Assembly: GCA_934155645.1 (NCBI GenBank)
Contig: CAKPHC010000005.1
Span: 75,819 to 139,818 of the forward strand
Source: an uncultured Bacilli bacterium
Lineage (GTDB): Bacteria > Bacillota_I > Bacilli_A > RF39 > UBA660
Direction: 5' to 3'
DNA length: 64,000 nucleotides
In this document: one piece after another, positions 2,785-62,039 of the stretch
How positions within the stretch are numbered: the first letter of the stretch is position 1
Layout of the letters: every line of letters begins with the position of its first letter
Translations under genes and position numbers: made by a program
The notes under the pieces: model-generated
The model's database searches: none
Told to the model about the DNA's origin: nothing
The model's input: only the letters and a program-made list of their open reading frames with translations

Positions 2785-2829
2785 TGTTTGAATTAAATTT
2801 GCTCATAAAGACAATTTATATTTGATAGT

Positions 2830-2860
2830 ATAAGGTGGATTTATGTCCACCTTATTTTTA
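2830..2860 (+). terminator. intra-operon stem-loop/attenuator (TAAGGTGGA-TTTATG-TCCACCTTA + T-run)
   Basis: Perfect 9-bp stem followed by TTTTTAT, between the first and second genes of the cluster. Confidence 0.55.
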
Positions 2861-2872
2861 TAGGAGGGTTGT

Positions 2873-3418: not shown

Positions 3419-3427
3419 GAGTTTTGT

Positions 3428-3895: not shown

Positions 3896-3904
3896 GGGGA
3901 ATTT

Positions 3905-4384: not shown

Positions 4385-5229
4385 TGGAAAAGAAGTTGTT
4401 TTTAATAGCAATTTTATGTTTGTGTTTAATTAACTGTAAAGTTAATGCACAAAGTAAAGATATCGAGGCTAAATATGAAACTAGTTATAATGTAGAGTTG
4501 GTTTCTGTTCATCTGAATAATAATTCCAAATATTTCGTGATAGACAATTATGAGTTTGAAGTATCAACAACTACCAATAACATAGAAATAGTTATTATTA
4601 GAGCTAGTGGAGATGCTAGCAATTATGCTAAGAAATTTTCTGGTAGTAATGATAATTATTATTTAATAATCTATCAAAACGGTGAAAAAATTAATACAAG
4701 TAATGTTAGTATAAAGATTAATTCTACATCTAAAGTACTTAATGTATATAAAAATAATGGTAAACTCTTAGAAAAATCAAACGAAAAAATTAGTTTAACT
4801 GCTAATGATTATTTTTTTGTAATCACTGATACTATTGATATTGGTGAAAATAATTATGTAGTTACTGATAATGGCAATAGAGTTGATAATGTTGATGATA
4901 TTGAAATTAGTGATGACAGTGTTATAGAAATATATAATTCTAAAGATATTAAAGTAGATAATACAAGTGTTTTAGGCACTAACTATAAAGTAATTATTAC
5001 AACGGGAACAGAAGTCAAAAAATATGTAATTATCGTTAAAGGTGATACTACTGGTGATGGTAAAATAAACTTAAATGATATAACTAGACTTTACCATTAT
5101 TATAAGGGAATAGAACTAATGGATGAATGTTATGTTTTAGCAGGTGATGTTGCAAGAAATCAAATTATTAACTTAAACGATGTTACAAAATTATATCATT
5201 ATTATAAAAATATAATTACTAGTTTATAG
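4384..5229 (+). CDS. secreted dockerin-domain protein (signal peptide, beta-rich domain, C-terminal type-I dockerin)
   Basis: Signal peptide MEKKLFLIAILCLCLINCKVNA. The C-terminus has two F-hand-like repeats, DTTGDGKINLNDITRLYHYY and DVARNQIINLNDVTKLYHYY. Ca-ligand positions 1, 5, 9 and 12 are conserved. Confidence 0.65.
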   Translation: MEKKLFLIAILCLCLINCKVNAQSKDIEAKYETSYNVELVSVHLNNNSKYFVIDNYEFEVSTTTNNIEIVIIRASGDASNYAKKFSGSNDNYYLIIYQNGEKINTSNVSIKINSTSKVLNVYKNNGKLLEKSNEKISLTANDYFFVITDTIDIGENNYVVTDNGNRVDNVDDIEISDDSVIEIYNSKDIKVDNTSVLGTNYKVIITTGTEVKKYVIIVKGDTTGDGKINLNDITRLYHYYKGIELMDECYVLAGDVARNQIINLNDVTKLYHYYKNIITSL

Positions 5230-5237
5230 GTGATGGT

Positions 5238-7400
5238 ATGAAGAAATTTTTATTGTTGGTAATTGGTATTATTTTAATGCCTTCATGTGTATTCGCTTCT
5301 GATAATAGTGTTTATATTGGTTGTGAAGGAATTAAATATAAAACTAATGACGAAATAAAGTGCAATATTTATGTTGACGTTGATTTTATAGTAACCAGTG
5401 TATCGGGTAAAATATTATTAGATGATAATTTAGAATTAGTAAGTTCTTCATATGATAATGATAATTGGCTAATGTTAGATGAAAATTTTAGTGTAGAAAG
5501 TATAAACTTAATCAGTGAAAATAAAAAAGAAAGAGATAATTTTATTATTGCATCTTTTGTTATTAAAGCAATTAATAAAGAAGACATTAGTGCCTCTAAA
5601 ATATCTTTTGATGATGTTGTACTTGGTGATGAAAACTACGAAGAACATGAAATAGTTGCAGATAGTTTTGATTTGAATTTAGAGTATAAAAGCAATAATA
5701 ATATATTCGTAGTTTTATTATTTGCCTTTTTAGTTATGGTAGTAATTTATTTAGTAAATAAAGAAGATAATAAAAATAAGAAAAATAAAGTAGGAATTAT
5801 TATATTAGTATTATTTTTATTTTTGATACCAGACTGTGTCTTAGCAAGTAATGATATTAATATTAGTTGTGATAAAACAAAACTTAATAGTAATGAAGAA
5901 ACAAGTTGTAGTTTATCAGTTAGTAATTTAGATTTTGTACCGACTGATATAGCAGGAACGGCTAAAGTTGGTAATTATTTATCAATAGTTAGTTCATCAT
6001 ATGATAAAAGTAATTGGACATCTTTTGATTCTAATTTTAGTGTTAGTGATATTAACTTGATACGTCAAAGCAAAGACAAAGTTAGTAGTTTTACAATAGC
6101 TACTTTTAGGGTTAAAGCTAGTAGTGGTGCTGTTGGTAGCAGTACAATTAGTTTTAATAATATAGTTATGGGTGATGATAATTATAATAGTGTTTCTTTA
6201 GGAAATAAATCTATTAATGTTAGTTTTAATTCCAGCAATAATTATTTGAACTCTTTAATTGTAAGTGAAGGAAATGTTGATTTTTCAAAAGATAAGACGA
6301 ACTATTCCTTGACAGTGGATAGTGATAGTATTGTTGTTAGTGCTACAGCAGCAGATAGCAAAGCTAAGATTAGTGGTACTGGTAAAATAAATTTATTATA
6401 TGGAGAAAATATAATTAATGTAGTTGTAACAGCAGAAGATGGTAGTAAAAAAACATATACATTAAGAATTACTAGAAAAGATAATCGTAGTACCAATAAT
6501 TATTTAAAGAGTTTATCATTGTCTTGTGGTAATTTAAATTTTAATAAGAATATTAATAACTATAATATAGAAGTTGATGGTGATATTAGCAAAGTTATTA
6601 TTACAGCTAGTCTAGAAGATTCTAAAGCTAAGTTTGTTAATAGTTTTGGACCTAGAAGTGTTAATTTAAATTATGGAACAAATAAGATTTTAATTAAAGT
6701 ATTAAGTGAAAACGAAATAGAAAAAGTTTATACCTTAAATATAACAAGAAAAGATAATCGTAGTAGTGATACATCTTTAAAAAGCATTACTATTAGTTCT
6801 GGTAAGATAAATTTTAATAAAGATAAGTTATCATATAATGTTAATGTAAATAATAATATTAAAAAGATTAAAATTACAGCAGAAGCAAATAATTCAAAAA
6901 GTTTAGTCGAAATAGAAGGAAGCCAACAATTAGAAGTTGGAGAAAATATTTTTATAATTAAAGTAATCGCAGAAAACGGAAACATACAAGAATACAAAAT
7001 AGTTGTTAATCGCGAAAAGAAAATCACTATTACTGACAATAATAAATTAACTAATATAGAAATCAAAAATCATGAAATAAATTTTTCTAGTAATTTATAT
7101 GAATATACTGTGAAAACAAAAAATTCTAAGCTAGATATCATAGTAACACTTGCTTCAGAAGAATCAACATATGTGATAAACGGCAATGATAATTTAGAAG
7201 ACGGAAGTATTATTTCAATAGTTGTTACTGATAAAGATGATAATCATAATATTTATAAGATTTATATAGAAAAAATTCATGAAATAAATATATATTTAAT
7301 ATTATTTATAATTTCACTAGTATTAAATATTTTATTAATTTTAGTAATAATTTATTTATTGATTAAGAGAAACAAAAAAAATAAGATTGGGAAAGAATAG
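5238..7400 (+). CDS. membrane-anchored scaffoldin-like surface protein: signal peptide, cohesin-like domain 1, TM-loop-TM hairpin, cohesin-like domain 2, 4 cadherin-like beta-sandwich repeats, C-terminal TM anchor
   Basis: Domain signatures:
- Both N-terminal domains fit the cohesin pattern (…DFIVTSVSGKILLDDNLELVSSSYD…FIIASFVIKA…ISFDDVVLGDENY and …DFVPTDIAGTAKVGNYLSIVSSSYD…FTIATFRVKAS…ISFNNIVMGDDNY).
- Four ~85-aa repeats match the Cadherin-like beta-sandwich (PF12733) pattern (NYL.SL.vS.G.l.F…Y.v.V…v.vtA….a…G…L..GeN.i.i.V.aEdG…Y.l.itR).
- C-terminal TM plus a KRNKKNK tail. Confidence 0.65.
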   Translation: MKKFLLLVIGIILMPSCVFASDNSVYIGCEGIKYKTNDEIKCNIYVDVDFIVTSVSGKILLDDNLELVSSSYDNDNWLMLDENFSVESINLISENKKERDNFIIASFVIKAINKEDISASKISFDDVVLGDENYEEHEIVADSFDLNLEYKSNNNIFVVLLFAFLVMVVIYLVNKEDNKNKKNKVGIIILVLFLFLIPDCVLASNDINISCDKTKLNSNEETSCSLSVSNLDFVPTDIAGTAKVGNYLSIVSSSYDKSNWTSFDSNFSVSDINLIRQSKDKVSSFTIATFRVKASSGAVGSSTISFNNIVMGDDNYNSVSLGNKSINVSFNSSNNYLNSLIVSEGNVDFSKDKTNYSLTVDSDSIVVSATAADSKAKISGTGKINLLYGENIINVVVTAEDGSKKTYTLRITRKDNRSTNNYLKSLSLSCGNLNFNKNINNYNIEVDGDISKVIITASLEDSKAKFVNSFGPRSVNLNYGTNKILIKVLSENEIEKVYTLNITRKDNRSSDTSLKSITISSGKINFNKDKLSYNVNVNNNIKKIKITAEANNSKSLVEIEGSQQLEVGENIFIIKVIAENGNIQEYKIVVNREKKITITDNNKLTNIEIKNHEINFSSNLYEYTVKTKNSKLDIIVTLASEESTYVINGNDNLEDGSIISIVVTDKDDNHNIYKIYIEKIHEINIYLILFIISLVLNILLILVIIYLLIKRNKKNKIGKE
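6231..7275 (+). repeat. four tandem ~255-270-bp coding repeats (cadherin-like domain units) inside the scaffoldin gene
   Basis: Repeat boundaries are marked by the recurring DNA strings agaaaagataatcgtagta (6471, 6741) and the protein motif ITRKDNRS. Confidence 0.6.
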
Positions 7401-7423
7401 ACAAATCTATTTTTTTTTATATA

Positions 7424-7460
7424 AAAATACCCCTAACTTTAATGTTAAAGGTATTAATAA
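7424..7460. terminator. bidirectional terminator between convergent genes
   Basis: AATACCCCTAAC…GTTAAAGGTATT imperfect hairpin in an AT-rich context, flanked by T-runs on both strands. Confidence 0.4.
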
Positions 7461-7465
7461 ATTAA

Positions 7466-8134
7466 TTATTTAAACTGAGCAGCGTTGTTATTTAAGACAG
7501 TTTCTTGAGAATGCATTTGATAATTTTGAATATCATTTAATTGATGAACACTATTTACAACTGCTTGTTGCTCATCGAGTGTTGTTTTTGCAACTGTTCT
7601 CAATGAGTGGTTTAAAAATAAATCCACTTCTTCAGATAATGAAGAATAGGTAGCACCGTTTTTATATCTAAATTGTTTTTCCTCTGCTACACCATACTTA
7701 TCATAAATTTTATTACCCAACTCATTAATTGTTCTTTTAGTAAAATCTCCAAAATAACTAGATTTTTTACCATCTTTTAATTCTTCTATTAGATTATCTA
7801 CCATTTGATATTTATTTCTTGCCACATCACCAATATCAGGGCGAAGATTTCCTTCACTACTGACAAGTTCATCTAAAACAACTTCGGTAGCTTTATCAAA
7901 AACATCGGCATATCGAATAGCACCATATTCGTAATTTTTCTTTAAAATTGGAATAATTTCTTTAGGTGATAGTTCATAACCCTCTCTTTTAGTTATTTTG
8001 CATATTGTAAAACTCAAATCTTCCAATTCGTTCATACGACGCATATTATCAGGGTTAATTTCCCTTTTCATAGATTCATCTAAAGCTCTATATGAATCAG
8101 TATAACTTCTTAATACTTGTAATTCTTCATCCAT
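7466..8134 (-). CDS. hypothetical cytoplasmic protein (no recognisable family)
   Basis: ORF with a good RBS (GGAGG, 9 nt) at Met14 of the six-frame ORF (MDEELQVL…). No TM segments or motifs recognised. Confidence 0.45.
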   Translation of the reverse strand: MDEELQVLRSYTDSYRALDESMKREINPDNMRRMNELEDLSFTICKITKREGYELSPKEIIPILKKNYEYGAIRYADVFDKATEVVLDELVSSEGNLRPDIGDVARNKYQMVDNLIEELKDGKKSSYFGDFTKRTINELGNKIYDKYGVAEEKQFRYKNGATYSSLSEEVDLFLNHSLRTVAKTTLDEQQAVVNSVHQLNDIQNYQMHSQETVLNNNAAQFK

Positions 8135-8289
8135 AATAATGCGCCTCCTATTGCCATTATAAATTTTAATCAATTAAAAATCAATGTAATAACTAAAAAA
8201 AGGTAAGACATTTACATTAATCAATTTAAATTTTACTCTTATTTTTAAGAGAAACAGTAAGATAAATATTAAAAAAACTTATAGACAAA

Positions 8290-8383
8290 ATAAAATATAT
8301 TTGTTATACTACTTGCGAGTATTTAGGTACTCCTTGCTTCATTCTCGTAATGAGGCCATAAGTCCAAGAGGAGGTGTAGAAAA
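8290..8383 (+). promoter_or_regulatory. rpsF promoter (extended -10 TGtTATACT) plus a structured ~75-nt leader (possible S6:S18-binding autoregulatory leader)
   Basis: tttgTTATACT motif. The leader contains hairpins (TCATT-CTCGT-AATGA) before the RBS GAGGAGG. Confidence 0.35.
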
Positions 8384-17842: not shown

Positions 17843-17862
17843 AGAACTTCGGTTCTTTTTTG
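17843..17862 (+). terminator. rho-independent terminator
   Basis: AAGAAC-TTCG-GTTCTTTTTT. Confidence 0.65.
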
Positions 17863-21374: not shown

Positions 21375-22238
21375 ATGGATAAGGAAGTAATTAGTAAAAA
21401 AGTTAACTTTAAGTTGCAAACCAAAAGATATTTGCAATTAATATTAGGGGTATTTATTTTAGCACTTTCATTTAATATATTCATATTACCAAATAATTTT
21501 GTGTATGGAAGTATAAGTGGTTTATCAATTGTAACTCAAAAACTATTTGGAATAGAACCTTCTTCTTTTATTATGATTGTATCCATTTTATTATTAGTAG
21601 TAAGTTACTTTGTACTAGGAAAAGAAAAAACTGCTGCTTCAATATTGGGTTCTATATTATATCCTATTGCAGTTAAGTTACTAAGTAATGTTAGATTATA
21701 TATAGATTTTGATTCTTCACAATTATTGCTATCAGCAATATTTGGTGGAATAGCATCAGGATTAGGAGCTGGATTAGTATACAAAGCAGGTTTTACCACA
21801 GGTGGAACTGATATTATTGAACAAATCATGTCTAAATACTTAAAGATGAGTATGGGTAAAGCAATAATACTATGCGATGGAATAATCTTGTTATGTGGTA
21901 CTATTTTCTTTGGAATAAATAACTTTATGTATGCACTAATTGTTCTTTATCTTATTAGTACATTAGCAGACAGAGTTCTACTTGGAATATCTGATTCAAA
22001 GGCATTTTATATTGTGACTGAAGAAGATAAACAAGTAAAGGATTTTGTGTTAAATGGATTGAGTCACGGAGTAACTATTTTTGAAGCAAGAGGTGGATAT
22101 GAAAATAAGAAACAAAAAGTACTATTCTGCGTTGTACCAACTAAAGAGTATTTTAAGCTAAAAGAAGGCATCAAAAACATAGATTCAAAAGCATTCTTTG
22201 TGGTTACCGATGCCTATGAGGTTTATGGCGGTGAGTAG
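21375..22238 (+). CDS. YitT family membrane protein (DUF161 + DUF2179)
   Basis: …LQLILGVFILALSFNIFILPNNFVYGSISGLS… is a typical YitT N-terminus. C-terminal DUF2179-like soluble domain. Confidence 0.65.
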   Translation: MDKEVISKKVNFKLQTKRYLQLILGVFILALSFNIFILPNNFVYGSISGLSIVTQKLFGIEPSSFIMIVSILLLVVSYFVLGKEKTAASILGSILYPIAVKLLSNVRLYIDFDSSQLLLSAIFGGIASGLGAGLVYKAGFTTGGTDIIEQIMSKYLKMSMGKAIILCDGIILLCGTIFFGINNFMYALIVLYLISTLADRVLLGISDSKAFYIVTEEDKQVKDFVLNGLSHGVTIFEARGGYENKKQKVLFCVVPTKEYFKLKEGIKNIDSKAFFVVTDAYEVYGGE

Positions 22239-22239
22239 C

Positions 22240-23100
22240 ATGTTTGAAAAATTAATAGATTACTGTCAAAGAAAAAATGTGCTTAAAAGATATTCATACT
22301 TATTTCTTGCTCTTTTTGTTTCTTCAATTTGCTATAATCTTTTAGTATATCCGTCTAAAATAGTAGCGGGTGGTACAAGTGGATTATCTATATTAATTGA
22401 ACATGCTTTTAATATTACACCATCATATTTTATATTGTTATTTTCTGTTGCAATTTTGATTATTGCAATGTTTGTTTTAGGATTTGAAAAAACAGCGGGC
22501 TCAATAATAGCATCACTAGCTTATCCATTTTTTATTGATATAACTTCTGGTATAACAACCATCGTTGCCATCAACAATACTGATATGCTTTTGATTAGCT
22601 TATATATAGGAGTAATATCAGGATGGAGCAGTGGAATGATTTATAAAATGGGCTTTAGTAACGGAGGTATGTCATTAATTGTACAAATGCTACACGAAAA
22701 ATGCCACATAGCAGCCGGTAAATGCAGTTTTTTAATAAACATGATAATAGTTGTTCTAGGTGGTCTTATATTTGGAATAAATAATTTAATGTACGCGATA
22801 ATAGTGCTATTTGTAAGTGGAATTATTACAGATAAGGTTATGCTCGGAATATCTAATAATAAAATGTTTTATATAATTACTTCAAAAAATGATGAAGTTA
22901 AAAATTATTTATTAAATGAAATGGGTAAAGGTGTAACTGAATTTAAAGTTACAAGCGGATATAAAGGAGACAATCGTGAAGCTTTAATGACAGTGGTACC
23001 AACTAAAGAGTATTTTCGAATTACCGAAGGAATAAAAAAAATAGATACTAATGTCTTTTTTGTTGTTGCAGATTCATATCAAACATCTGTCAATGCCTAA
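22240..23100 (+). CDS. YitT family membrane protein (second tandem paralog)
   Basis: Same architecture as the upstream gene. The start is placed at MFEKL (ATG 22240) directly after the upstream stop. Confidence 0.65.
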   Translation: MFEKLIDYCQRKNVLKRYSYLFLALFVSSICYNLLVYPSKIVAGGTSGLSILIEHAFNITPSYFILLFSVAILIIAMFVLGFEKTAGSIIASLAYPFFIDITSGITTIVAINNTDMLLISLYIGVISGWSSGMIYKMGFSNGGMSLIVQMLHEKCHIAAGKCSFLINMIIVVLGGLIFGINNLMYAIIVLFVSGIITDKVMLGISNNKMFYIITSKNDEVKNYLLNEMGKGVTEFKVTSGYKGDNREALMTVVPTKEYFRITEGIKKIDTNVFFVVADSYQTSVNA

Positions 23101-24753: not shown

Positions 24754-25946
24754 GAAAACTAGTACAGATAGTGTTAATTATAGCAATATGTCTTGCTTTT
24801 ATTCCTTACAATACTAAGGCAATTACATTAGGTGAATATGAAGCGGTGTTGCAAAAATATATAGATCAAGCAAATGCCAACCAAGCTGCTATAAATAAAA
24901 CGGAAGCACAGATTAAAGAAACAAACAATGAAATAGCAAATATTAAAACTGAAATGACTAATTTAGCAGCAGAGATAGAAAAGTTGAATCAAGAAATCGT
25001 TGAATACAACGAAAAAATCAAAGAAAAAAGTTTACAAACCAAAGAAATATTCCAATATTTTCAAATGTCTAAAGGAGAAAATGCTAATTTAGAATATATC
25101 TTTGGTGCTGAAAGTGTAACTGATATGATTTATCGTATGGCTATCGTTGAACAAATGACTGAATATAACAATAAAGTTACTAAAGAACTTGAAGATATGA
25201 TTGAACAAAATAAGAAACGTGAAGTAGAAATCGATAATCGAAAGAACGAATTAACGACTAAGCAAAAAGAAATGGAACAAAAACTTGTATCACTAGGAAA
25301 TAGTAAACAGTCATTAACTGCTGGTGGTGCAACAATTCAAGAAGAAGTAAAAAACTATAGAGCTATCGTTAAAGCGTATAAAGATTTAGGATGTCAAAGC
25401 CACCATGTTATAGGTGTAGACTGTGCTACTTCGGGTTCGGCTGGAGTATTTAGAAGACCTATTAGTACAGGATATATAACAAGTGAATTTGGGGCACGTT
25501 GGGGTTCATTTCATAGAGGACTAGATATGAGCAACAGAGATCCTTACAATACAAAAATATACCCAGTCGCAAATGGTACTGTAAGTGCTAAATATTATGA
25601 CCTTTATGGAGCTCTTTGCGTAGCGATAATTCATTATGATGCAGCAAGTAATACATACTATACATCATTATATGTTCATTTAAATTCATGGGCACCAGAT
25701 TTATATGTAGGTAAATATGTTACATCAGATACATATATAGGTTATATGGGAAGTACTGGTTACAGTACGGGACCGCATCTACATATGGAAATAGCACCTT
25801 GTAGACTATACATTGATGGACAATGTGGTACATGGGATTCATATGTATTGTTTGTTAAAAATCAAAACAAGTACAATGGTTTTCAAGGCCCACGTCAATT
25901 AATTAATTTCCCAAGCGGTTTATATAACACTTGGCATACAAGATAG
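24750..25946 (+). CDS. coiled-coil peptidoglycan hydrolase, M23 peptidase family (EnvC/PcsB-like FtsEX partner)
   Basis: Signal peptide, then about 200 aa of heptad-rich coiled coil. C-terminal M23 motifs FHRGLD (HxxxD) and GPHLHMEI (HxH) are intact. Start-stop overlap (ATGA) with ftsX. Confidence 0.75.
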   Translation: MRKLVQIVLIIAICLAFIPYNTKAITLGEYEAVLQKYIDQANANQAAINKTEAQIKETNNEIANIKTEMTNLAAEIEKLNQEIVEYNEKIKEKSLQTKEIFQYFQMSKGENANLEYIFGAESVTDMIYRMAIVEQMTEYNNKVTKELEDMIEQNKKREVEIDNRKNELTTKQKEMEQKLVSLGNSKQSLTAGGATIQEEVKNYRAIVKAYKDLGCQSHHVIGVDCATSGSAGVFRRPISTGYITSEFGARWGSFHRGLDMSNRDPYNTKIYPVANGTVSAKYYDLYGALCVAIIHYDAASNTYYTSLYVHLNSWAPDLYVGKYVTSDTYIGYMGSTGYSTGPHLHMEIAPCRLYIDGQCGTWDSYVLFVKNQNKYNGFQGPRQLINFPSGLYNTWHTR

Positions 25947-25966
25947 GATACTTCCTATCTTTTTAT
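25941..25966 (+). terminator. rho-independent terminator
   Basis: AGATAGGA-TACT-TCCTATCTTTTT. Confidence 0.65.
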
Positions 25967-25989: not shown

Positions 25990-26019
25990 TTGACAAACGT
26001 TTGTTTGTAGGATTATAAT
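25990..26019 (+). promoter_or_regulatory. uvrB promoter (TTGACA-18-TATAAT) with a 10-bp palindrome CAAACGTTTG in the spacer (candidate SOS/LexA-type operator)
   Basis: Read directly from the sequence. The palindrome resembles the Firmicutes Cheo box GAAC-N4-GTTC with two mismatches. Confidence 0.45.
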
Positions 26020-26038: not shown

Positions 26039-27988
26039 ATGTTTAATTTAGTATCAAAATATAATCCAAGTGGAGATCAACCTAAAGCCATAGAAGAATT
26101 AGTGACAGGTCTAAAGAATAACAAAAAACATCAAGTTTTACTAGGGGCTACCGGTACGGGTAAGACTTTTACTATTGCTAATGTAATTAAAGAAGTTAAT
26201 AAACCAACTTTAGTTTTAGCACACAATAAAACTTTAGCAGGACAACTATATAGTGAATTAAAAGAATTATTTCCAGATAATCGAGTTGAATATTTTGTAT
26301 CTTATTATGATTACTATCAGCCAGAAGCATATGTTCCTTCAACAGATACATATATAGAAAAAGATTCATCAATAAATGATGAGATAGATGAATTGCGTCA
26401 TTCTGCAACTAGTGCTTTATTATCAAGAAAAGATGTAATAGTAGTAGCCAGTGTTTCTTGTATATATGGTATAGGTGAAGTAGAAGAATATTTAAATAAA
26501 ATGTTAACTTTAAATGTTGGAGATAGAATTGATAGAGACCAGGTATTAATGAAACTTGTTGATATGCTTTATGAAAGAAATGACATAGATTTTAAACGTG
26601 GCACTTTTAGAGTTAAAGGAGACGTTCTTGAAGTTATTCCATCTAGTGATAGAACTAACGGGATAAGAGTGGAATTTTTTGGTGATGAAATAGACCGTAT
26701 TAGTGAAATAGATCCATTAACTGGTGCGATAAAAAATAATAAGAAAACCATTTCTATTTTCCCAGCTAGTCACTTTGTAACGAGTGACGAAAAACTAAAA
26801 GCTGCAATCAAAACGATTAAAGAAGAATTAAAAGATAGATTAGAGTATTTTAAAGAAAATAATAAATTGTTGGAATACCAAAGACTTGAACAAAGAACTA
26901 ATTATGATTTAGAAATGTTAGAAGAGACAGGATTTTGTACCGGTGTAGAAAACTATTCACGACATTTAGCTGGTCGTAAAGAAGGAGAAACACCAACTAC
27001 ATTAATGGATTTCTTTCCTGATGATTATTTACTTGTAATAGATGAATCTCACGTTACTATTCCTCAAGTAAGAGGTATGTATAATGGTGATAGAGCTCGT
27101 AAAATGAATTTAGTTGAGTATGGCTTTAGATTACCAAGTGCTCTTGACAACAGACCATTAAAATTCGATGAATTCGAGAAAAAGATTAATCAAGTAATAT
27201 ATGTTTCTGCTACACCTGGAGATTATGAATTATCACTAGTTAATAACAAGTATGTGGAACAAATAATAAGACCTACTGGATTATTAGACCCGATTATTGA
27301 AGTAAGAAAAAGTGAAGGTCAAATTGATAATTTGGTTGGAGAAATAAAAGAACGTATGAAGAATAATGAAAGAGTATTGATTACTACTTTAACTATTCGT
27401 ATGGCAGAAGAATTAACCAATTATTTAAAAGATTTAGATATTAAAGTAGCTTATCTTCACACAGAAGTAAAAACTTTAGAAAGAATGCAAATAATTCGTG
27501 ATTTGCGTTTAGGAAAATATGATTGTATAGTTGGTATAAACCTATTAAGAGAAGGTATAGATATACCAGAAGTAAGTTTAATTGCAATATTAGATGCTGA
27601 TAAAGAAGGATTCTTACGTAGCAGCAGAAGTTTAATTCAAACAATAGGTAGATGTGCTAGAAATGCTCATGGCAAATGTATAATGTATGCCGACCACATG
27701 ACTGATTCAATGGATTATGCAATTAAAGAAACGGCAAGACGCAGAAGAATTCAAGAACAATATAATATTGAACATAACATTGTACCTAAAACAATCATTA
27801 AAGATATAAGAGATGTTATAAGTAATGTAGATGAAACAAAAGATAAGAAAGTTAAATTAACAAAGAAAGAAATGACTAAGACAATAGATAAGATTGAACA
27901 AGAAATGAAAGAAGCAGCGCGTAATCTTGACTTTGAAAGAGCGATGGAGTTACGTGATATATTGTTTGAAATGAAGAGTGAAGTATAA
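26039..27988 (+). CDS. uvrB: excinuclease ABC subunit B
   Basis: Helicase motifs GATGTGKTF and DESH; C-terminal UVR domain (…[11 protein letters not shown]…). Confidence 0.95.
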
Positions 27989-28827
27989 TGAGATTTAAAA
28001 AAATATATATAGAGATAACTAATTCATGTAATTTAAACTGTTCTTTTTGTCACAACAATAATCGTAGTAAACAATTTATAAGTGTGGAAAAGTTTAAGGA
28101 AGTAATTTCTAAGATAAAAGATTATACAGAATATATATATTTACACGTGAAAGGGGAACCTTTATTACATCCCAATTTAGAAGAGATACTTGCTATATGT
28201 GAACAAAACAATATCAAGGTAAATATAACTACAAATGGCACTTTACTAAAGACTAGATATGATACCTTAAAAAAGTTTTCATGTGTAAGGCAACTAAATA
28301 TTTCGCTACACTCCGAAAACAACTTATTAACATATTACGATGATGTTTTTGAAACCTGTAAAGAATTATCACAGAATATGTTCATAAGCTATAGATTATG
28401 GACATTAAAAGACTATAAATTGGATAAAAAATCCACAGATGTTGTTGATAAAATAATTAAAAGTTATAATTTATCAACAAATATAGTGGAAAAATTATAT
28501 TGCGACCGTTCAGTCAAAATATTTTTGAACACTTTTGTGAATAAAGATAATTTGTTTTCTTGGCCAACGCTAGATGCTGAAAACGAAAGTGATGGTTTTT
28601 GCTATGGATTAAATACACATATTGGAATATTGGTTGATGGAACTGTAGTACCTTGTTGTTTAGATGGTGAAGGCATTATAAATTTGGGAAACATTTTCGA
28701 GGAAACGATAGAAGAGATATTACAAAAAGGTAGAACTAAGCAAATTATAGAAAATTTTAATCAAAATAAATGTAGCGAAGAATTATGCAAAAAATGTGAA
28801 TATAAAAATAGATTTATAAAAAAATAA
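27988..28827 (+). CDS. radical SAM enzyme with C-terminal SPASM/twitch-like Cys cluster
   Basis: N-terminal CNLNCSFC (Cx3Cx2C). C-terminal Cys pattern …C…PCC…C-x4-C-x2-C. Start overlaps the uvrB stop (TAATG). Confidence 0.7.
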   Translation: MRFKKIYIEITNSCNLNCSFCHNNNRSKQFISVEKFKEVISKIKDYTEYIYLHVKGEPLLHPNLEEILAICEQNNIKVNITTNGTLLKTRYDTLKKFSCVRQLNISLHSENNLLTYYDDVFETCKELSQNMFISYRLWTLKDYKLDKKSTDVVDKIIKSYNLSTNIVEKLYCDRSVKIFLNTFVNKDNLFSWPTLDAENESDGFCYGLNTHIGILVDGTVVPCCLDGEGIINLGNIFEETIEEILQKGRTKQIIENFNQNKCSEELCKKCEYKNRFIKK

Positions 28828-28862
28828 TGTATGGTATAATACAAGTGATTTAGGAGGCATTC

Positions 28863-29450
28863 ATGGCTAACAAAAATATTGAAATGTTAAAAGTTTTCTT
28901 TGGAGTAATAAATAATAATGAAAAGTATATAAACCTAGTATTACCTAACTGCTATGTTAAAAGTGTTTATGATATAGATTACGAAACATTATATAAGAAA
29001 GGCTATCACAGTATTATATTTGATATTGATAATACATTATTACCGGTTAACGATATTAAAGTACCAGAAGATTTGAAATGCTTAATGGAACAATTAAAAG
29101 GATATGGCTTTAATGTATGTATTGTATCTAATAATTCAATAGAAAGAGTATTACCGCCAGCTGAAAACTTAGGAGTTACTTATCTTGCTAATGCTCATAA
29201 ACCAAATCCAATCGCTTTTTCAACAGCATTAAAAGAGTTAAATTCAACCGTTGAAGAAACAGTTATGGTGGGTGACCAAATGCTTAGTGACATTAAAGGT
29301 GCTAATGAGTATGGATTATACAGTATTTTAGTTGACCCGGTTGATAATAAATATGATATTAAAACTGGTACTAGTCGTGTATTACAAAATATAATGATAA
29401 AAAAATTAAGTAAGAGAGATTTATTTAAAAAAGGTTCTTATTATAAATAG
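28863..29450 (+). CDS. HAD superfamily phosphatase, YqeG-like (HAD-IIIA)
   Basis: Motif I IIFDIDNTLL (DxDxT). Size and motif order match the YqeG family. Confidence 0.6.
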   Translation: MANKNIEMLKVFFGVINNNEKYINLVLPNCYVKSVYDIDYETLYKKGYHSIIFDIDNTLLPVNDIKVPEDLKCLMEQLKGYGFNVCIVSNNSIERVLPPAENLGVTYLANAHKPNPIAFSTALKELNSTVEETVMVGDQMLSDIKGANEYGLYSILVDPVDNKYDIKTGTSRVLQNIMIKKLSKRDLFKKGSYYK

Positions 29451-34816: not shown

Positions 34817-35350
34817 ATGGAAAAACAATGGTATGTAGTTAATACTTATTCTGGACATGAAAGTAAAGTTAAGGAAAAACTAGAAATGAAAGCAAATTCT
34901 ATGGATATGAAAGATTATATCTTTAGAGTTATAATTCCTGAACAAAAAGAAATTGAAGTAAAAGATGGTGTTCAAAAAGAAAAAGTTAAAAAGATGTTTC
35001 CAGGTTACATTTTAGTTGAAATGGTTATGAGTGATGAAGCATGGTATGTTGTTCGTAATACTCCAGGTGTAACAGGATTTATAGGTTCAAGTGGTAAAGG
35101 TGCAAAACCAACTCCTTTACAACCATATGAAGTTGATAATATCTTAAGAAATATGGGTATTAGCAGATTTGATACAGATAAAGAATTAGAAGTAGGAACA
35201 AAGGTAAAAATTATTGCTGGTCCATTTAACGGAATGTATGGAACTATTTCTACAATCGATATGGAAAATCAAAAATTAGAATTAAACGTAGATTTATTTG
35301 GACAAGAAACTACTGTTGAAGTTGAATTATCTCAAATAGAGGTGGCATAA
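34817..35350 (+). CDS. nusG: transcription termination/antitermination factor NusG
   Basis: NGN domain (WYVVNTYSGHE) and KOW motif (GTKVKIIAGPFNGMYGTI). Confidence 0.95.
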   Translation: MEKQWYVVNTYSGHESKVKEKLEMKANSMDMKDYIFRVIIPEQKEIEVKDGVQKEKVKKMFPGYILVEMVMSDEAWYVVRNTPGVTGFIGSSGKGAKPTPLQPYEVDNILRNMGISRFDTDKELEVGTKVKIIAGPFNGMYGTISTIDMENQKLELNVDLFGQETTVEVELSQIEVA

Positions 35351-35352
35351 CA

Positions 35353-36204
35353 GTGAGTATAAAAATGGGTGACACTAGTCTTTCAGAAGAAAGATATATT
35401 GAATTAAAAAAACTAGCGTATGATTACTATGATAAATATAATGAATTGGATAGAGTATCAAGGAAAGATTTTTTAGATAGTATCCCTAGTCTTAACACAC
35501 ATTTTGAAGACTTAATCGTAAGAACAACTTTATTATTTCCTGATACTGAAGATTTATTAAAAATATCAAAAGGTTCTCTTCATAACGTTCTTAAAGAAAT
35601 AGCTAACAATGAAGACGGTATTACAAATGAAGATGTTTTGGCTAAAAGCGTTGAATATTCAACTCAAAGAGTAAAAGAACTCATCAATGAAGGCAAATTA
35701 AAAGTTATGGAAAGAATTAAATATCCAGAAACAAGTATAAGTGAGAAAGAATATGTTGCATTAAAAAAAGAAGCATTAAAATATAGAAAAGCTTTTTTAG
35801 GTTTAAGCATAGTGAAGAAATCAGAAATGATTGAAGAGTGCGCTAAGGATGCTTCATATCAAGAATGTATACAATTGGCAACTTTACTAATTCCAAATGA
35901 TTCAAAAGTGATTTCAATGATGAAAAATCATTCAAACCTTGAAATTGCAGATAAATATAATGTTCCAGTTAGCGTAATTGAATTTAAGCGACATGAATAT
36001 AATTATCAAGGAACAGAAAAACTAATAGAAAAAGGATTGTTTGAAAAATCACAAGATGACGCCCTATGGAATTCATCTGATTTAGATGACAGCTTTATAG
36101 ATGCCATTTGGGATCAAAGTTTTTATAAAGGTATTGAAGAAGAACAGCAACAACAAGTAACTAAAAATTTAGTTAAGATATATTCCAAAGCAATAAAGAA
36201 CTAA
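35353..36204 (+). CDS. hypothetical protein inserted between nusG and rplK (no recognisable family)
   Basis: GTG start 7 nt after GAGGTGG, 2 nt after the nusG stop. 283 aa, acidic, no TM. Confidence 0.5.
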   Translation: MSIKMGDTSLSEERYIELKKLAYDYYDKYNELDRVSRKDFLDSIPSLNTHFEDLIVRTTLLFPDTEDLLKISKGSLHNVLKEIANNEDGITNEDVLAKSVEYSTQRVKELINEGKLKVMERIKYPETSISEKEYVALKKEALKYRKAFLGLSIVKKSEMIEECAKDASYQECIQLATLLIPNDSKVISMMKNHSNLEIADKYNVPVSVIEFKRHEYNYQGTEKLIEKGLFEKSQDDALWNSSDLDDSFIDAIWDQSFYKGIEEEQQQQVTKNLVKIYSKAIKN

Positions 36205-40268: not shown

Positions 40269-43200
40269 GTGGCATATAAGATAATTAATTGTGGTAACCA
40301 CCGCCAGAGAAGAAGTTTCTCTAGAATCAAAAATACTTACGAACTAAAGGATTTGCTAGAAATCCAAAAAAAATCATATCAATGGTTTGTTGAAACAGGA
40401 ATAAAGGAAGTTTTCGATGACCTATTCCCCGTAGAAAATTTTTCAGGTACTTTGTCATTAGAATTTGGAGATTATCATTTTGATGAACCAAGATATTCTA
40501 TTAAGCAAAGCAAAGACCGTGAAACAACATATGCGGCACCTTTAAAGGTAGAAGTCCGTCTTTTTAATCATGAAACAGGTGAGGTAAAAGAACAAGAAAT
40601 ATTCTTAGGGGACATGCCTTTAATGACTGATAGCGGAACTTTCGTTATTAATGGTGCAGAACGTGTAATTGTTTCTCAATTAGTAAGATCTCCAAGCGTA
40701 TATTTCAATAAGGAAATAGATAAAAGTGGAAGACCTTCTATTACTTCACAAATAATTCCAACACGTGGAACTTGGCTAGAATTTGAAACAGATGCCAGGG
40801 ATGTTTTGTATGTAAGAATTGATAGAACAAGAAAAGTTCCATTAACTACATTACTACGTGCTTTCGGATTATCAAGTGATGAGGATATTCTAAAGTTATT
40901 TGGTAAAGATGAATATCTTGAGAATACTTTAGCAAAAGATTCAACTAGAAATACAGATGAAGCATTAATTGAAATTTATGAAAAATTAAGACCAGGTGAA
41001 CCTGCAACTCTTGATTCTTCTAAAAACCAAATTATTACTAGATTCTTTGATGAGTTTAGATATGACTTAGCAAGAGTAGGACGTTATAAATTTAATCGTA
41101 AATTAAATGTTTTAGATAGGGTTTTAAATCAAACTATTGCTGAAGACATTAAAGTTAATGGTGAAGTAGTAGTTGCTAAAGACACTTTAGTAACTAAAGA
41201 AGTACTAGATACATTAAAACCTATATTTGCTGATGGTTATAATGTAACCAGTGCTAAAATAAATGAAGATTTAGATAATTTAGATAAAATTCAAACTGTT
41301 AAAATCTACAATCCTTCTAACAAAAAAGAAGTTATTACTTTAATAGGTAATGACCAAACATTAGAAGTTAAGAGATTAACTATTTCTGATTTATATGCAT
41401 CAGTATCATATTATTTAAATTTATTAAAAGGAATTGGACAATTTGATGAAATAGACCATTTAGGAAATCGTCGTATTCGTCAAGTTGGTGAATTATTACA
41501 AAATCAATTTAGAATAGGTGTTTCTCGTATGGAACGTGTTATTCGTGAAAGAATGACAACTCAAGAAATGGAAGAAGTAACACCAAAAACTCTAATTAAT
41601 ATTAGACCTATTACGGCAGCTATGAAAGAATTTTTTGGTAGCAGCCAATTATCTCAATTCATGGACCAAACCAACCCAATCGCAGAGTTAACAAACAAAA
41701 GACGTTTATCTGCATTAGGTCCAGGTGGTTTATCTCGTGATAGAGCAGGTATGGAAGTGCGTGACGTTAACGCATCACACTATGGTAGAATCTGTCCAAT
41801 TGAGTCACCAGAAGGACAAAATATCGGACTTATTACATCACTTGCAAGCTATGCTAAAGTAGATGATTATGGATTCATCATGACTCCATATAGAAAAGTA
41901 AAAGATAAAGTATTAACTGATGAAGTTGATTACTTAACTGCAGATGAAGAACAAGATGTTATTATCTCTTTAGCAACAGTTACTATTGATGATAATAATA
42001 TGATGATAGATGAACAAGTTCCTGCTAGATTCCGTGGTGAAAATATTTTGGTTAAACCAGAACAAGTTGACTATGTTGACGTATCACCACAACAAGTAGT
42101 AGCAATTACAACAAGTTGTATTCCGTTCTTGGAACACGATGATGCTACTCGTGCACTAATGGGAGCAAACATGCAACGTCAATCAGTACCATTATTAAGA
42201 TCAGAAGCACCACTTGTAGGTACAGGTGTTGAATACGTAGCAGCAAAAGATTCTGGAGCTGTAGTAGTAGCAAAAGCTGATGGTATAGTTGATTATGTTG
42301 ATGCTAGAAAGATTGTTGTAAAGAATAAAGGTGGAAAAGATGAGTATCATTTGGCAAACTTTGAACTATCAAATGCTGGTACTTGTCAACATCATAGACC
42401 TATAGTTAAAGTAGGAGACACAATTAAAGCTGGTGAAGTTATAGCAGATGGTCCAAGTACAGACCAAGGAGAACTTGCACTAGGTAAAAACGTATTAGTT
42501 GCATTCATGACATTTAATGGATATAACTATGAGGATGCTGTAATCTTAAATGAAAGACTAGTAAAAGATGATGTTTATACAGGTCTTCACTTAGAAGATT
42601 ACGAAATGCAATGTCGTGAAACTAAATTAGGACCTGAAGAAATTACAAGAGATATTCCTAATGTTAGTGAAGAAGCAAGAAAAAATCTTGATGAAAATGG
42701 TATTGTAATAGTTGGCACTGAAGTTAAAGAAGGAGATATCTTAGTAGGTAAAGTAACACCAAAAGGTATGGCTGAACTTACTTCAGAAGAAAAATTATTA
42801 CACGCTATATTTGGAGAAAAGACTCGTGAAGTTAGAGATACTTCATTACGTGTTCCACATGGTGGAGATGGTATCGTTCACGATGTTAAGATTTTCTCAA
42901 GAAAAGATAATGATGAATTACCTGCAGGAGTATCTAAAGTAATTCGTGTATATATAGTTCAAAAAAGAAAAATACAAGTAGGAGATAAAATGGCTGGACG
43001 TCATGGTAACAAAGGTGTTATTTCCTTAATCCTACCTGAAGAAGATATGCCATACTTACCAGATGGTAGAACTATTGATATCATGTTAAACCCACAAGGT
43101 GTTCCTTCTCGTATGAACTTAGGACAAATCCTAGAACTTCATTTAGGTATGGCTGCAAAAGAATTAAATGTCCATGTAGCTACACCAGTATTCGATGGTG

Positions 43201-43886
43201 CTAAGACAAGTGATATTGCTGAAATGATGGAAGAAGCTAAACTTGCACCAGATGGAAAAACAGTTTTATATGATGGTAGAACAGGTACACCATTTGATAA
43301 CAGAATATCTGTTGGTGTTATGTACATGATAAAACTACATCACATGGTTGATGATAAATTACATGCACGTAGTACTGGTCCATATTCATTAGTAACTCAA
43401 CAACCTCTTGGTGGTAAGGCACAATTTGGTGGACAGAGATTTGGTGAAATGGAAGTTTGGGCATTATATGCATATGGTGCTGCACATACTCTACAAGAAA
43501 TTCTAACTGTTAAATCAGACGATGTTATCGGACGTGTTAAAGTATATGAAGCAATCGTTAAAGGACAAGAAATTAATCAAGCAGGAGTTCCAGAAAGCTT
43601 TAGAGTATTGATGAAAGAATTCCAAGCTTTAGGATTAGATATCAGTATCATCAATGATAAACATGAAGAATTACAATTAAAAGAAATCGAAGAAGAAGAA
43701 TATAAAGAAGATTTCGTTGGAAATGTTGAAGATATAGAATTACCTATTCCAACACATGAAGATGAATCAAAGGATTATGATGAAGAGTCTTTAGATGACG
43801 AAGATGAGGACTTTGACGAAGAATTCGACGATAGTGAATTTGATGATACCTTTGAAGATGATTTTATGGAAGGAGATGAAGAGTAA
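40269..43886 (+). CDS. rpoB: DNA-directed RNA polymerase subunit beta
   Basis: GTG start; conserved …[11 protein letters not shown]…SYQWF… Full length with an acidic Phe-rich C-terminal tail. Confidence 0.97.
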
Positions 43887-46800
43887 TGATAGAAGTAAAT
43901 AAATTTGAAGCCTTAAAGATAGGTATTGCATCTCCAGATAAAATACGTGAATGGTCATATGGTGAAGTAAAAAAGCCAGAAACTATTAACTATAGAACAC
44001 TACGTCCAGAACGTGATGGATTGTTCTGCGAAAAAATCTTTGGACCAACTAAAGATTTTGAGTGTGCTTGTGGAAAGTACAAAAGAGTAAGATATAAAAA
44101 TATTGTTTGTGATAGATGTGGAGTAGAAGTAACTCGTAGTAAAGTAAGACGTGAAAGAATGGGACATATTGAGTTAGCTTCTCCAGTGTCACATATTTGG
44201 TTCTTTAAAGGTGTTCCATCTCGTATGGGATTAGTACTAGATATGTCACCAAGAGATCTTGAAGAAGTATTATACTTTGTTAGTTATGTAGTAATTGATA
44301 AAGGTATTGCTCCTTTAGAAAATAAACAAACATTATCTGAAAAAGAATATCGTCAATACTATGAAAAATATGGTAATGGTTTCCGTGTAGGCATGGGTGC
44401 TGAAGCAATTAAGGAATTATTACAAAAAGTAGATATTGAAAAAGAATTAGAAGAAATTACAAAAGAATTAGAGGGAGCTCAAGGACAAAAGAGAACGAGA
44501 TTGTTAAAACGTATTGATGTTCTTGATGCATTCCATAAATCTGGTAACCGTCCAGAATGGATGATTCTAGATTGTATTCCAGTTATACCTCCAGAATTAA
44601 GACCAATGATTCAATTGGATGGTGGTAGATTTGCAACAAGTGATTTAAATGATTTATATCGTCGTGTTATTAACCGTAATAATCGTTTAAAGAAATTAAT
44701 AGATTTAAAAGCTCCAGGTATCATTATTCAAAACGAAAAACGTATGTTACAAGAGGCAGTTGACGCTCTATTTGACAACGGAAGACGTGGAAGAAGTGTT
44801 ACTGGTGCAGGAAATCGTCCTTTGAAATCACTTTCTAGTATGTTAAAAGGTAAACAAGGTCGTTTCCGTCAAAACTTATTAGGAAAACGTGTCGACTATT
44901 CAGGACGTTCAGTTATCGTTGTTGGTCCATCATTAAAGATGTATCAATGTGGTATTCCTAAAGAAATGGCTATTGAGTTATTTAAACCACATGTAATTCA
45001 TGGTTTAGTTTCGCGTGATATAGCTCATAATATTAAAGCTGCAAAACGTTTAATTGAAAATAGAGACCCACAAATTTGGGATGTAGTTGAAGATGTTATA
45101 AAAGAACATCCAGTTATGTTAAACCGTGCACCTACACTACATAGATTAGGTATTCAAGCATTCGAACCAGTATTAATTGGTGGTAAAGCTATCCGTCTTC
45201 ACCCATTAGTATGTCCAGCATTCAACGCTGACTTCGATGGTGACCAGATGGCTGTTCACGTACCATTATCAGAAGAAGCTCAAGCTGAAGCAAGACTTCT
45301 TATGTTAGGTGCTAACAATATCTTATCTCCAAAAAGTGGTGACCCAATCGTTACTCCATCTCAAGACATGGTATTAGGTAACTATTATCTAACTATGGAA
45401 AAAGCTGGAGAAGATGGCGAAGGTCGTGTATTTAAAGATTCTAACGAAGCATTAATGGCATATGAAAGACGTGAATTAACACTTCATACAAGAATTGCTT
45501 TACCAGTAGATTCATTTAAACACAAATTATTTACTGAAGGTCAAAAAGGTAAATATTTAGTAACTACTGTAGGTAAGTTAAAATTTAATGAAATATTACC
45601 AGATTCATTTGCATATTTAAATGAACCAACATTAGATAATATTCAAGGTATTACTCCAAATAAATACTTTATTGAAAAAGGACAAAATATTCCTGAAGTA
45701 ATTAAAGGAATGGAATTAGTAAAACCTTTCCCTAAAGGAACACTAGAAAATATTATTGCTCAAGTATTCAAACGTTATAAAACTACTGAAACTTCTATAA
45801 TGTTGGATAAATTAAAAGATTTAGGATTTAAATATTCAACAATTGCAGGTATTACTATTTCAATTAGTGACGTTGTTACTAGTGATAAGAAAAATGAAAT
45901 TATAGCAGAAGCTAAAAAAGTAGTTGATAAAATAAATAAACAATACCAACGTGGTTTAATTACTGACGATGAAAGATTCCAAAAAGTAATTGCTACATGG
46001 GATGACGCTAAAGGACAAGTTCAAAAAGAGCTATCTGAAAAAGCAAATAAATATGTTGATAACCCAATCTTCATGATGATGCACTCAAAAGCGCGTGGTT
46101 CAATTTCTAACTTTACACAAATCGCTGGTATGCGTGGTATCATGTCAAAACCAGATGGTACTCCAGTTGAAATTCCTATTACATCTAACTTTAGAGAAGG
46201 TTTATCGGTTGCTGAATTCTTCTTATCAACACATGGTGCACGTAAAGGTAGTGCCGATACAGCTCTTAAAACTGCTGACTCTGGATACTTAACTAGACGT
46301 TTAGTTGATGTATCTCAAGATATTATCGTAAGAGAAGCAGATTGTGGAACTGAAAATGGTGTAGTTGTACGTGAATTTGTTAACGATAAGACAGGCGAAG
46401 TAATTGAAAAACTATATGACCGTATTGTTGGTAGATATACAAACAAGAAAGTTATTAATCCAGAAACTAAAGAAGTTATTGCTGATAAATTAGAATACAT
46501 TACTGAAGCAATTGCTGATAAGATAATTAAAGCTGGAATTAAAGAAGTAGAAATAAGAACAACATTGACTTGTGATACAGTTAATGGTGTATGTCAAAAA
46601 TGTTATGGACGTAACCTTGCTACAGGTAATATTGTAGAGGTCGGTGAAGCTGTTGGTATCATGGCTGCTCAATCAATCGGTGAACCAGGTACACAGTTAA
46701 CAATGAGAACATTCCATACTGGTGGTGTTGCTGGTGGAGAAGATATTACTCAAGGTTTACCACGTATTCAAGAATTATTTGAAGCAAGAATTCCAAAAGG

Positions 46801-47518
46801 AAAATCTACAATTGCTGAAATTAATGGTCAAGTATCAAAAATTGAAGAGGACCATGGTAAATTTAGAATTAGCGTTACAAACAAACTTGAAACTAAGGAG
46901 CATGTATCAAATTATGGAGCTAAACTTCGTGTAGCATTAAATGATACAGTTGTTGCTGGGGATAAATTAACAGAAGGTGCTATTAGTCCAAAAGAATTAT
47001 TAGCAGTAACTGACCCACTTACAACTCAAGAATATATCTTGAAAGAAGTTCAAGGTGTATATCGTAGCCAAGGTGTTGATATATCTGATAAACACGTAGA
47101 AATTATTGCTAAACGTATGATTTCTAAGATAAGAATCGTAGAGTCAGGTGACACTAAATTCTTACCAGGAGCTCTTGTAAATTATAGACAATTTACGGAT
47201 GGTAACAAAGAAGTAATCATTAATGGTAAACGTCCTGCTACAGGTAAACCAATCTTACTTGGTATTACTAAAGCATCACTAGAAACTGATTCATTCTTAT
47301 CTGCTGCATCATTCCAAGAAACAACAAGAATTCTTACAGATGCTGCAATAAGAGGAAAAGTTGATACATTACAAGGATTAAAAGAAAACGTTATCATTGG
47401 TAAATTAATTCCTGCTGGTACAGGTGCTAGACAATATAAAAACGTTGAATATGAATTAGCATCTCAATTTATTGATGAAGAACCAATAGATAAACTAGAA
47501 GATGAATTAATGGAATAA
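43886..47518 (+). CDS. rpoC: DNA-directed RNA polymerase subunit beta'
   Basis: Zn-binding CX2C motifs, NADFDGD catalytic motif, trigger loop. Confidence 0.97.

Positions 47519-60465: not shown

Positions 60466-62039
<1,574 letters not shown>

Follow-up and report, generated by a model that had tools for sequence, protein, structure and literature searches.

The stretch of DNA analysed here (the window) comprises 64,000 nucleotides (nt) of contig CAKPHC010000005.1 from an uncultured Bacilli bacterium of the RF39/UBA660 lineage. It contains the excision-repair genes uvrB and uvrA and, between them, an uncharacterised gene for a radical S-adenosylmethionine (SAM) enzyme, which we call rSAM, and a gene for a HAD phosphatase (Table 1). 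The uvrB promoter sits directly behind a terminator-like hairpin (25940-25961). The uvrB stop codon (TAA, 27986-27988) and the rSAM start codon (ATG, 27988-27990) have one base in common, and intergenic gaps of 35 nt and 12 nt separate rSAM from the HAD gene and the HAD gene from uvrA. Strong Shine-Dalgarno sequences precede uvrB, the HAD gene and uvrA, and rSAM is without one. No terminator-like site was predicted between uvrB and lgt. Because of the one-base overlap, the lack of a strong Shine-Dalgarno sequence and the lack of a preceding terminator, rSAM is the predicted second cistron of the uvrB operon, and the TAATG overlap without a strong Shine-Dalgarno sequence suggests that its translation is coupled to that of uvrB. 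The GC content of rSAM, 26.2%, lies inside the local range. The promoter-like site before the HAD gene is of a type whose regional total does not exceed the shuffle expectation.

An earlier reading of the sequence (the original prediction) had described much of this layout. The 279-amino-acid (aa) radical SAM open reading frame (ORF) at 27988-28827, the overlap of its ATG with the uvrB stop and its cysteine pattern were all confirmed. The proposed expression of rSAM from the uvrB promoter, with co-translation, is consistent with the 12/12 promoter upstream of uvrB and the lack of a predicted terminator between the two genes. The YqeG-like HAD phosphatase placed before uvrA was recovered with TIGR01668 above its cut-off, and the remark that no precursor-peptide ORF is evident nearby agrees with the two short gaps, which leave no room for one.

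Table 1 Features of the uvrB-uvrA region of the window.
Feature	Coordinates	Strand	Remarks
Terminator-like hairpin	25940..25961	+	Closes the upstream ftsEX/M23-peptidase unit; stem of 9 pairs, then a T-run
uvrB operon promoter, TTGACA-18 nt-TATAAT	25990..26019	+	12/12 match to the sigma-70 consensus
uvrB, 649 aa, first cistron	26039..27988	+	Strong Shine-Dalgarno GGAGGAG; full UvrB domain set (Pfam)
TAATG stop/start overlap of uvrB and rSAM	27986..27990	+	No strong Shine-Dalgarno upstream
rSAM, radical SAM/twitch-domain enzyme gene, 279 aa, uncharacterised family	27988..28827	+	
C14-x3-C18-x2-C21 codons, radical SAM [4Fe-4S] motif	28027..28050	+	Invariant in 115 sequences
Twitch-type auxiliary-cluster domain (predicted), residues 205-270	28600..28797	+	Cysteines align with the BtrN auxiliary-cluster cysteines
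Promoter-like site with extended -10 (TGgTATAAT), before the HAD gene	28813..28840	+	10/12 match; weak evidence
YqeG-family HAD-IIIA phosphatase gene, 195 aa, lineage-specific insertion	28863..29450	+	TIGR01668
uvrA, 935 aa	29463..32270	+	Full UvrA domain set (Pfam)

The rSAM protein scores above the gathering cut-offs of the Pfam families Radical_SAM (PF04055; 66.4 bits, cut-off 29.5) and SPASM (PF13186, residues 205-271; 47.8 bits, cut-off 21.5). Its cysteines are laid out as C14-x3-C18-x2-C21, C205, C223-C224 (PCC) and C262-x4-C267-x2-C270. Among 115 diverse members of the family C14, C18, C21, C205, C223, C224, C267 and C270 are invariant, as are H53, G56, S106, W138, F190, W192, D226 and G234, and C262 is variable. 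An AlphaFold (AF2) model built from the 115-member alignment reached a predicted local distance difference test score (pLDDT) of 95.8. In this model a partial TIM-barrel core is predicted to bind the SAM-cleaving [4Fe-4S] cluster via C14, C18 and C21. The best solved-structure match found by Foldseek was BtrN (E 5e-12, template-modelling (TM) scores 0.62/0.70), followed by SuiB, BlsE, anSME, EpeE, PqqE, AbmM, MoaA, SpeY, DesII and viperins; the best 50 PDB matches were radical SAM enzymes throughout.

BtrN, a 2-deoxy-scyllo-inosamine (DOIA) dehydrogenase (PDB 4M7T/4M7S), resembles rSAM in size (about 250-280 aa), in its two-domain layout and in the CX3CX2C motif at the extreme N-terminus. A profile of the rSAM family matched BtrN with an E value of 2.9e-21 and aligned the four auxiliary-cluster cysteines of BtrN (169, 187, 232 and 235 in chain numbering) with C205, C223, C267 and C270. 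The BtrN auxiliary cluster is ligated by four cysteines and is the proposed electron acceptor of a two-electron oxidation (PMC9012708, from which we also take the definition of the twitch domain). By this alignment, rSAM is probably a BtrN-like twitch enzyme with one SAM cluster and one four-cysteine auxiliary cluster, a [4Fe-4S] cluster for which C205, C223, C267 and C270 should supply all the ligands. The first half of the SPASM motif is present (C205-x12-G218-x4-C223), but the protein does not match the full seven-cysteine motif CX9-15GX4C...CX2CX5CX3C...C, as the CX2CX5CX3C block is absent and C262 is variable. Thus, the designation as SPASM-type in the original prediction holds for the above-threshold Pfam match and for the C-terminal auxiliary-cluster domain, but the domain appears to be a one-cluster twitch of the BtrN type and not a two-cluster SPASM domain. 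rSAM differs from BtrN in its low identity (about 18%), in the additional invariant C224 and in its own invariant H53, W138, F190, W192 and D226, and its family has the character of a housekeeping gene spread across many phyla. Orthology to the DOIA dehydrogenase was rejected on the grounds of that identity and of the absence of aminoglycoside or butirosin genes from the 178 loci that we examined across the family.

Other radical SAM enzymes are more distant. The SPASM maturases (anSME, PqqE, SuiB, AlbA and CteB) share the Pfam SPASM match and the first half of the cysteine motif, but they are 90-180 aa longer, and rSAM has neither the CX2CX5CX3C block, nor an RRE, nor a nearby precursor or substrate gene. 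The SAM-cluster motif already starts at residue 14, which leaves no RRE or other peptide-recognition domain ahead of it. AbmM (PDB 8WM2) and the MoaA-type models gave the best single-sequence PDB and NCBIfam scores for the N-terminal core, although the scores of MoaA, viperin, AbmM and BlsE lie far below family cut-offs and concern the core only. MoaA is itself a twitch enzyme, but its auxiliary cluster has three cysteines and an open iron site, compared with four cysteines in rSAM. In rSAM, few conserved basic residues could serve to bind a triphosphate. No NCBIfam model reached its cut-off: matches to the MoaA, tungsten-cofactor maturase, NirJ, PqqE, AlbA, viperin and further models cover the N-terminal core only, and scores with the maturase models are 33-50 bits where 265-850 would be required.

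The family is large and unnamed. A word-index search returned 7,999 matches, the best 120 of which are 57-98% identical to rSAM and 220-289 aa long, and a representative library holds about 460 clusters at 50% identity (E <= 1e-30). RefSeq labels the homologues only as 'radical SAM/SPASM domain-containing protein'. Cultured carriers include Lysinibacillus, Solibacillus, Tissierella and Vescimonas, together with a Bacillus thuringiensis record, and no model organism occurs among the cluster-member names. The gene is single-copy and syntenic in the manner of a housekeeping gene. Our literature search found no paper on the family or on a radical SAM gene linked to uvrB. We conclude that rSAM belongs to an unnamed, uncharacterised family inside the twitch/SPASM radical SAM enzymes, a new family of a known kind.

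To describe the gene order in related genomes, we scanned one genome per species. This yielded 545 relatives, the best 80 of which were fetched, and uvrB lies directly upstream of rSAM in 36 of these 80. All 36 are metagenome-assembled genomes (MAGs), carrying the submitter labels uncultured Bacilli, Tenericutes, Mycoplasma, Erysipelotrichaceae or Clostridium, or the names Bacillales UBA660/UBA1423 and Ca. Onthousia, and their UvrB proteins are 72-96% identical to that of the window. A metagenome scan added many further uvrB-rSAM loci. In P0131, a divergent representative, an rSAM 42% identical to the window protein stands in the order uvrB, rSAM, secE. Over all fetched loci, uvrB is followed by rSAM in 70, all from uncultured gut Bacilli. 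The two genes are directly adjacent in 58 of them, with gaps of -59 to +13 nt that are mostly -4, -1 or +1 to +2, and one to three genes are inserted between them in the other 12. The surroundings of the pair are scrambled in the 70 loci: ahead of uvrB stand members of 37 different gene clusters, and behind rSAM members of 28. Only in 8 of the 70 is uvrA the next gene after rSAM, and the pair is kept without an adjacent uvrA, as uvrB-rSAM-holin-like-lgt, in L017, L044, L049, L101, L114 and L139. In gut Bacilli, rSAM is linked to uvrB more stably than uvrA is. The rSAM proteins with a uvrB neighbour have diverged to 35% identity, and no other adjacency is equally deep and populated. In a neighbour-joining tree, linkage to uvrB was the ancestral condition of the gut-Bacilli radiation, and the lineages without it branched from within. 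Thus, the uvrB-rSAM pair is ancestral and stably maintained in a broad clade of uncultured gut Bacilli.

The HAD gene has a different history. The ORF at 28863-29450 matches TIGR01668 (YqeG-family HAD-IIIA) with 111.2 bits (cut-off 89.1), and outside the window we found the gene only in the closest relatives (L001, L002, L103, L104 and L107); it is a recent, lineage-specific insertion. Elsewhere in the clade, the space between rSAM and uvrA is occupied by YfiH-like (Cu-oxidase_4), bacterial PH, DUF7666, zincin (DUF3267) and GT1 genes and by an IS605 OrfB HTH fragment, and the uvrB-uvrA interval is an insertion hot spot (L007, L010, L013, L014, L019-L028 and other loci). Because the HAD gene is limited to the closest relatives and the rSAM-uvrA space is variable, the conserved unit is uvrB-rSAM and not uvrB-rSAM-HAD-uvrA. 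The four-gene arrangement, whose conservation the original prediction had proposed to check, is therefore conserved in its uvrB-rSAM part, in 70 loci, but not in its HAD part, which is confined to the nearest relatives. Between the window and its nearest relative, L001, the HAD protein is 66% and rSAM 85% identical, and UvrB and UvrA are 96% identical; by these lower identities, the HAD gene and rSAM evolve much faster than uvrB and uvrA.

Gene contexts were compared across the 178 loci; the contigs P0154 and P0207 are too short to show any. uvrC is a tight same-strand partner of rSAM in six loci (L066, L080 and L096-L099), with a stop/start overlap or a gap of at most 14 nt, and the uvrC-linked rSAMs are 52-59% identical to one another. 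recG is a tight same-strand partner in L122 and L132, and an RNase HII-family gene is tightly coupled to rSAM in L037. These couplings all belong to the unlinked lineages inside the gut-Bacilli radiation. In the cultured Vescimonas fastidiosa (Oscillospiraceae, Clostridia; L177, NZ_AP023416.1), a gap of 3 nt separates rSAM from mutY. The annotated operon there (4992-8352) consists of rSAM/SPASM, mutY, thymidine kinase (tdk) and a '4Fe-4S cluster-binding domain protein', and it is preceded by a GC-rich intergenic region of 430 nt. A SNF2 helicase gene is inserted after rSAM in L137 and L165, which belong to a lineage that carries genes for 3-deoxy-D-manno-octulosonate (KDO) synthesis and is probably Gram-negative. 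In L148, L155, L167, L170 and L174 (about 2600-5850), likewise of a KDO-synthesis lineage, rSAM comes last in an operon, behind a kdsA-kdsC fusion and kdsD (SIS+CBS).

Two further observations concern the immediate neighbours of the gene. In L157, L172, L173 and L133, rSAM starts within a gene for a stand-alone TSCPD protein of about 89 aa and is followed by murG, and such a protein lies two genes upstream of rSAM in L087 (2171-2410). This domain is otherwise familiar chiefly from class II ribonucleotide reductases. In L151, an unrelated second radical SAM gene (386 aa, 5394-6554, - strand) is convergent to the family member and abuts it.

We inspected the uvrB promoter for signs of SOS (LexA) control. 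Its spacer holds a palindrome, CAAACGTTTGTTTG, at 25994-26007, which resembles a LexA (Cheo) box. As AAAC-N4-GTTT it has two symmetric mismatches relative to the Firmicute Cheo box CGAAC-N4-GTTCG (core GAAC-N4-GTTC), and it is common only to the window and L001. The sole exact GAAC-N4-GTTC in the window, at 17844, is unrelated. The palindrome is absent from the 110 nt upstream of uvrB in L002, L014, L015, L020, L023, L035 and L038. At least two copies of the motif ACACGAAT(T), direct or inverted, occur upstream of uvrB in these loci; this motif may be the operator of a different regulator.

Taken together, the gene neighbourhoods lead us to favour, tentatively and at close to an even chance, a role in genome maintenance, in which rSAM would act on an intermediate of repair or on damage to a DNA base, sugar or nucleotide. 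This is inferred solely from gene neighbourhoods, because the gene repeatedly associates with uvrB, uvrC, recG, mutY and RNase HII-family genes. By analogy with BtrN-type enzymes (PMC9012708), the reduced cluster and SAM would generate a 5'-deoxyadenosyl radical, which would abstract a hydrogen atom from the substrate, and the auxiliary cluster would then oxidise the substrate radical, giving a net two-electron oxidation or a rearrangement. The enzyme would be made together with the excision-repair machinery and would not be a peptide maturase. A narrower version, which we consider unlikely, makes the family a second kind of radical SAM DNA-repair enzyme that directly reverses or processes a lesion of anoxic radical damage. 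The twitch enzyme, made with UvrB here and elsewhere with UvrC, RecG or MutY, would then bring the 5'-deoxyadenosyl radical and an electron-accepting auxiliary cluster to bear on DNA, an excised oligonucleotide or the nucleotide pool. From general chemistry one might speculate on the re-oxidation of 5,6-dihydropyrimidines or the undoing of a sugar-base cyclo-lesion. The suggestion of a DNA- or nucleotide-directed enzyme in the original prediction is unproven, although independent associations of rSAM with uvrC, recG, mutY and RNase H genes lend it some support.

Several results weigh against a role in genome maintenance. The 138 distinct immediate-neighbour clusters map to 192 Pfam families, the commonest being ABC ATPases and SF2-helicase domains with 3-4 clusters each. 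Only about 6 of the 138 are repair or helicase clusters, and most contexts outside the uvrB clade hold no repair gene. The excess of repair neighbours is at most about 2-fold over a rough, self-estimated background and is not significant alone. Some lineages conserve partners outside repair, namely kdsA/kdsD (five loci), fmt-rsmB, TSCPD-murG, an amino-acid ABC transporter, MatE and a convergent pepF, and further neighbours without a tie to repair are MurJ, Polysacc_synt, SpoIVB, GGDEF, RsgA, MsrA, ftsZ, SecA, hrcA and greA. In Bacillus thuringiensis, for example, rSAM (WP_000713636.1) follows rlmH and faces a convergent pepF. Within the clade itself, the uvrB-uvrA gap also houses plainly unrelated genes. 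LexA (Cheo) boxes are absent upstream of the stand-alone Lysinibacillus, Solibacillus and B. thuringiensis homologues, and also upstream of the uvrC-, recG- and SNF2-linked genes and the mutY-linked gene of Vescimonas. The family has no recognisable DNA-binding domain, its median isoelectric point of 7.6 is not basic and is uninformative on DNA binding, and the substrates of the nearest characterised relatives found by Foldseek are sugars, nucleosides or peptides and not DNA. We regard it as more telling than the count of unique clusters that the pairings with uvrB and uvrC are deep and stable and that different repair partners recur in separate lineages.

Several of these results suit the main alternative, which we take seriously while doubting it somewhat more than we credit it, namely that rSAM is an operon hitch-hiker whose housekeeping substrate has nothing to do with DNA and might be a sugar phosphate, a nucleoside or an envelope precursor. 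rSAM would have inserted behind uvrB in the ancestor of the clade, and the pair would have persisted without a functional repair link; having no promoter or strong ribosome-binding site of its own, the gene would be silenced on leaving uvrB. Such a history would fit the insertion hot spot between uvrB and uvrA and the heterogeneity of the neighbours, with their 192 Pfam families, as well as the LexA boxes not found upstream of stand-alone or other repair-linked homologues. It would also fit the translation signals of the family, which suggest low, coupling-dependent translation: by a crude measure, a Shine-Dalgarno-like 4-mer lies at -18 to -4 in only 18 of 81 family genes, whatever the neighbour. 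As to the substrate, the closest structures are small-molecule enzymes, with the carbohydrate and nucleoside relatives BtrN, BlsE, DesII, SpeY and AbmM. The conserved kdsA/C-kdsD operons of the KDO-synthesis lineage and the murG, Polysacc_synt/LicD/Amidase_3, monogalactosyldiacylglycerol (MGDG) synthase, GT2 and MatE/MurJ neighbours point the same way, as do the recurrent nearby nucleoside-metabolism genes tdk, YfiH-like, IU_nuc_hydro, xanthine permease and guaC. What hitch-hiking leaves unexplained is that rSAM, once away from uvrB, is found start/stop-coupled anew, inside this radiation to uvrC, recG and an RNase HII-family gene and in Clostridia to mutY, and that the uvrB adjacency has outlasted every other one.

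The remaining explanations concern the class of the enzyme. A peptide or protein maturase acting in trans, either on a ribosomally synthesised and post-translationally modified peptide (RiPP) with a SPASM/twitch mechanism or on a housekeeping protein, for instance a repair protein or the small TSCPD protein, would account for the Pfam SPASM match, the weak N-terminal similarity to sactisynthases and PqqE, the presence of SkfB and SuiB among the structural and profile matches, and the 89-aa TSCPD protein whose gene runs into the start of rSAM in one lineage and is close to rSAM in a second. We consider it quite improbable: with a cluster motif from residue 14 there is no RRE domain, the gaps of 35 and 12 nt in the window could not hold a precursor ORF, the 178 loci show no small ORF, leader peptidase or exporter cassette that recurs, every NCBIfam maturase model scores far below its cut-off, and the gene has the single copy and the synteny of a housekeeping gene. 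The arrangement is also not unique to this strain, recurring in 70 loci, and by NCBIfam the gene falls into no defined peptide-maturase family, the two outcomes together that the original prediction had named as contrary to its proposal. Among radical SAM enzymes, spore photoproduct lyase is, to our knowledge, the one well-known case of a role in DNA repair. Like rSAM it is a radical SAM enzyme, and the two would both act in DNA repair if our leading hypothesis holds; it differs in having no auxiliary cluster, in the place of its cysteine motif and in being tied to sporulation, not to uvrB. It is absent from the phmmer and profile matches in the PDB (E <= 1e-3) and from the best 50 Foldseek matches, in keeping with the dissimilarity stated in the original prediction. 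That rSAM might be a disguised enzyme of this type, or a prokaryotic viperin-like (pVip) defence enzyme, is suggested by the operon in common with uvrB and by scores of the N-terminal core of 48 bits with the PADLOC pVip models and 41 bits with NF038283. We hold this to be very improbable and the identities largely refuted by the membership tests, because the pVip matches reflect the generic core (residues 6-112) and fall far below the cut-off of 180 of NF038283, viperins and spore photoproduct lyase have no twitch domain, and the gene is chromosomal and syntenic. The family occurs in 1 of 50,697 phage records and 4 of 72,556 plasmid records, the four being large plasmids or chromids. A defence or mobile origin was rejected on this near-absence, on PADLOC matches limited to the generic pVip core and on the GC content within the local range.

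Overall, rSAM is a plausible candidate, as yet unproven, for a hitherto unrecognised factor in the handling of DNA damage. If the link to uvrB is functional, it would suggest that bacteria, anaerobes above all, meet DNA damage with a radical chemistry not yet described; if not, the pair would be a clean example of an operon hitch-hiker that has outlived the surrounding synteny. The idea is directly testable, since Bacillus and Lysinibacillus, which can be cultured and manipulated genetically, carry homologues.

Further features of the window lie outside the uvrB region. A 283-aa ORF with a GTG start (35353-36204) lies between nusG (34817-35350) and rplK-rplA, a junction at which most bacteria have no gene. 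On the + strand, a 2,564-aa ORF (49654-57348) is flanked by two large ORFs of 1,205 and 1,210 aa (40269-47518) and by an rRNA operon (16S, 60466-62037; 23S, from 62251). Finally, upstream of ftsE-ftsX-M23 peptidase, the interval 21375-23100 holds two tandem overlapping ORFs of 287 and 300 aa with similar membrane-protein sequences, which are probably paralogues.

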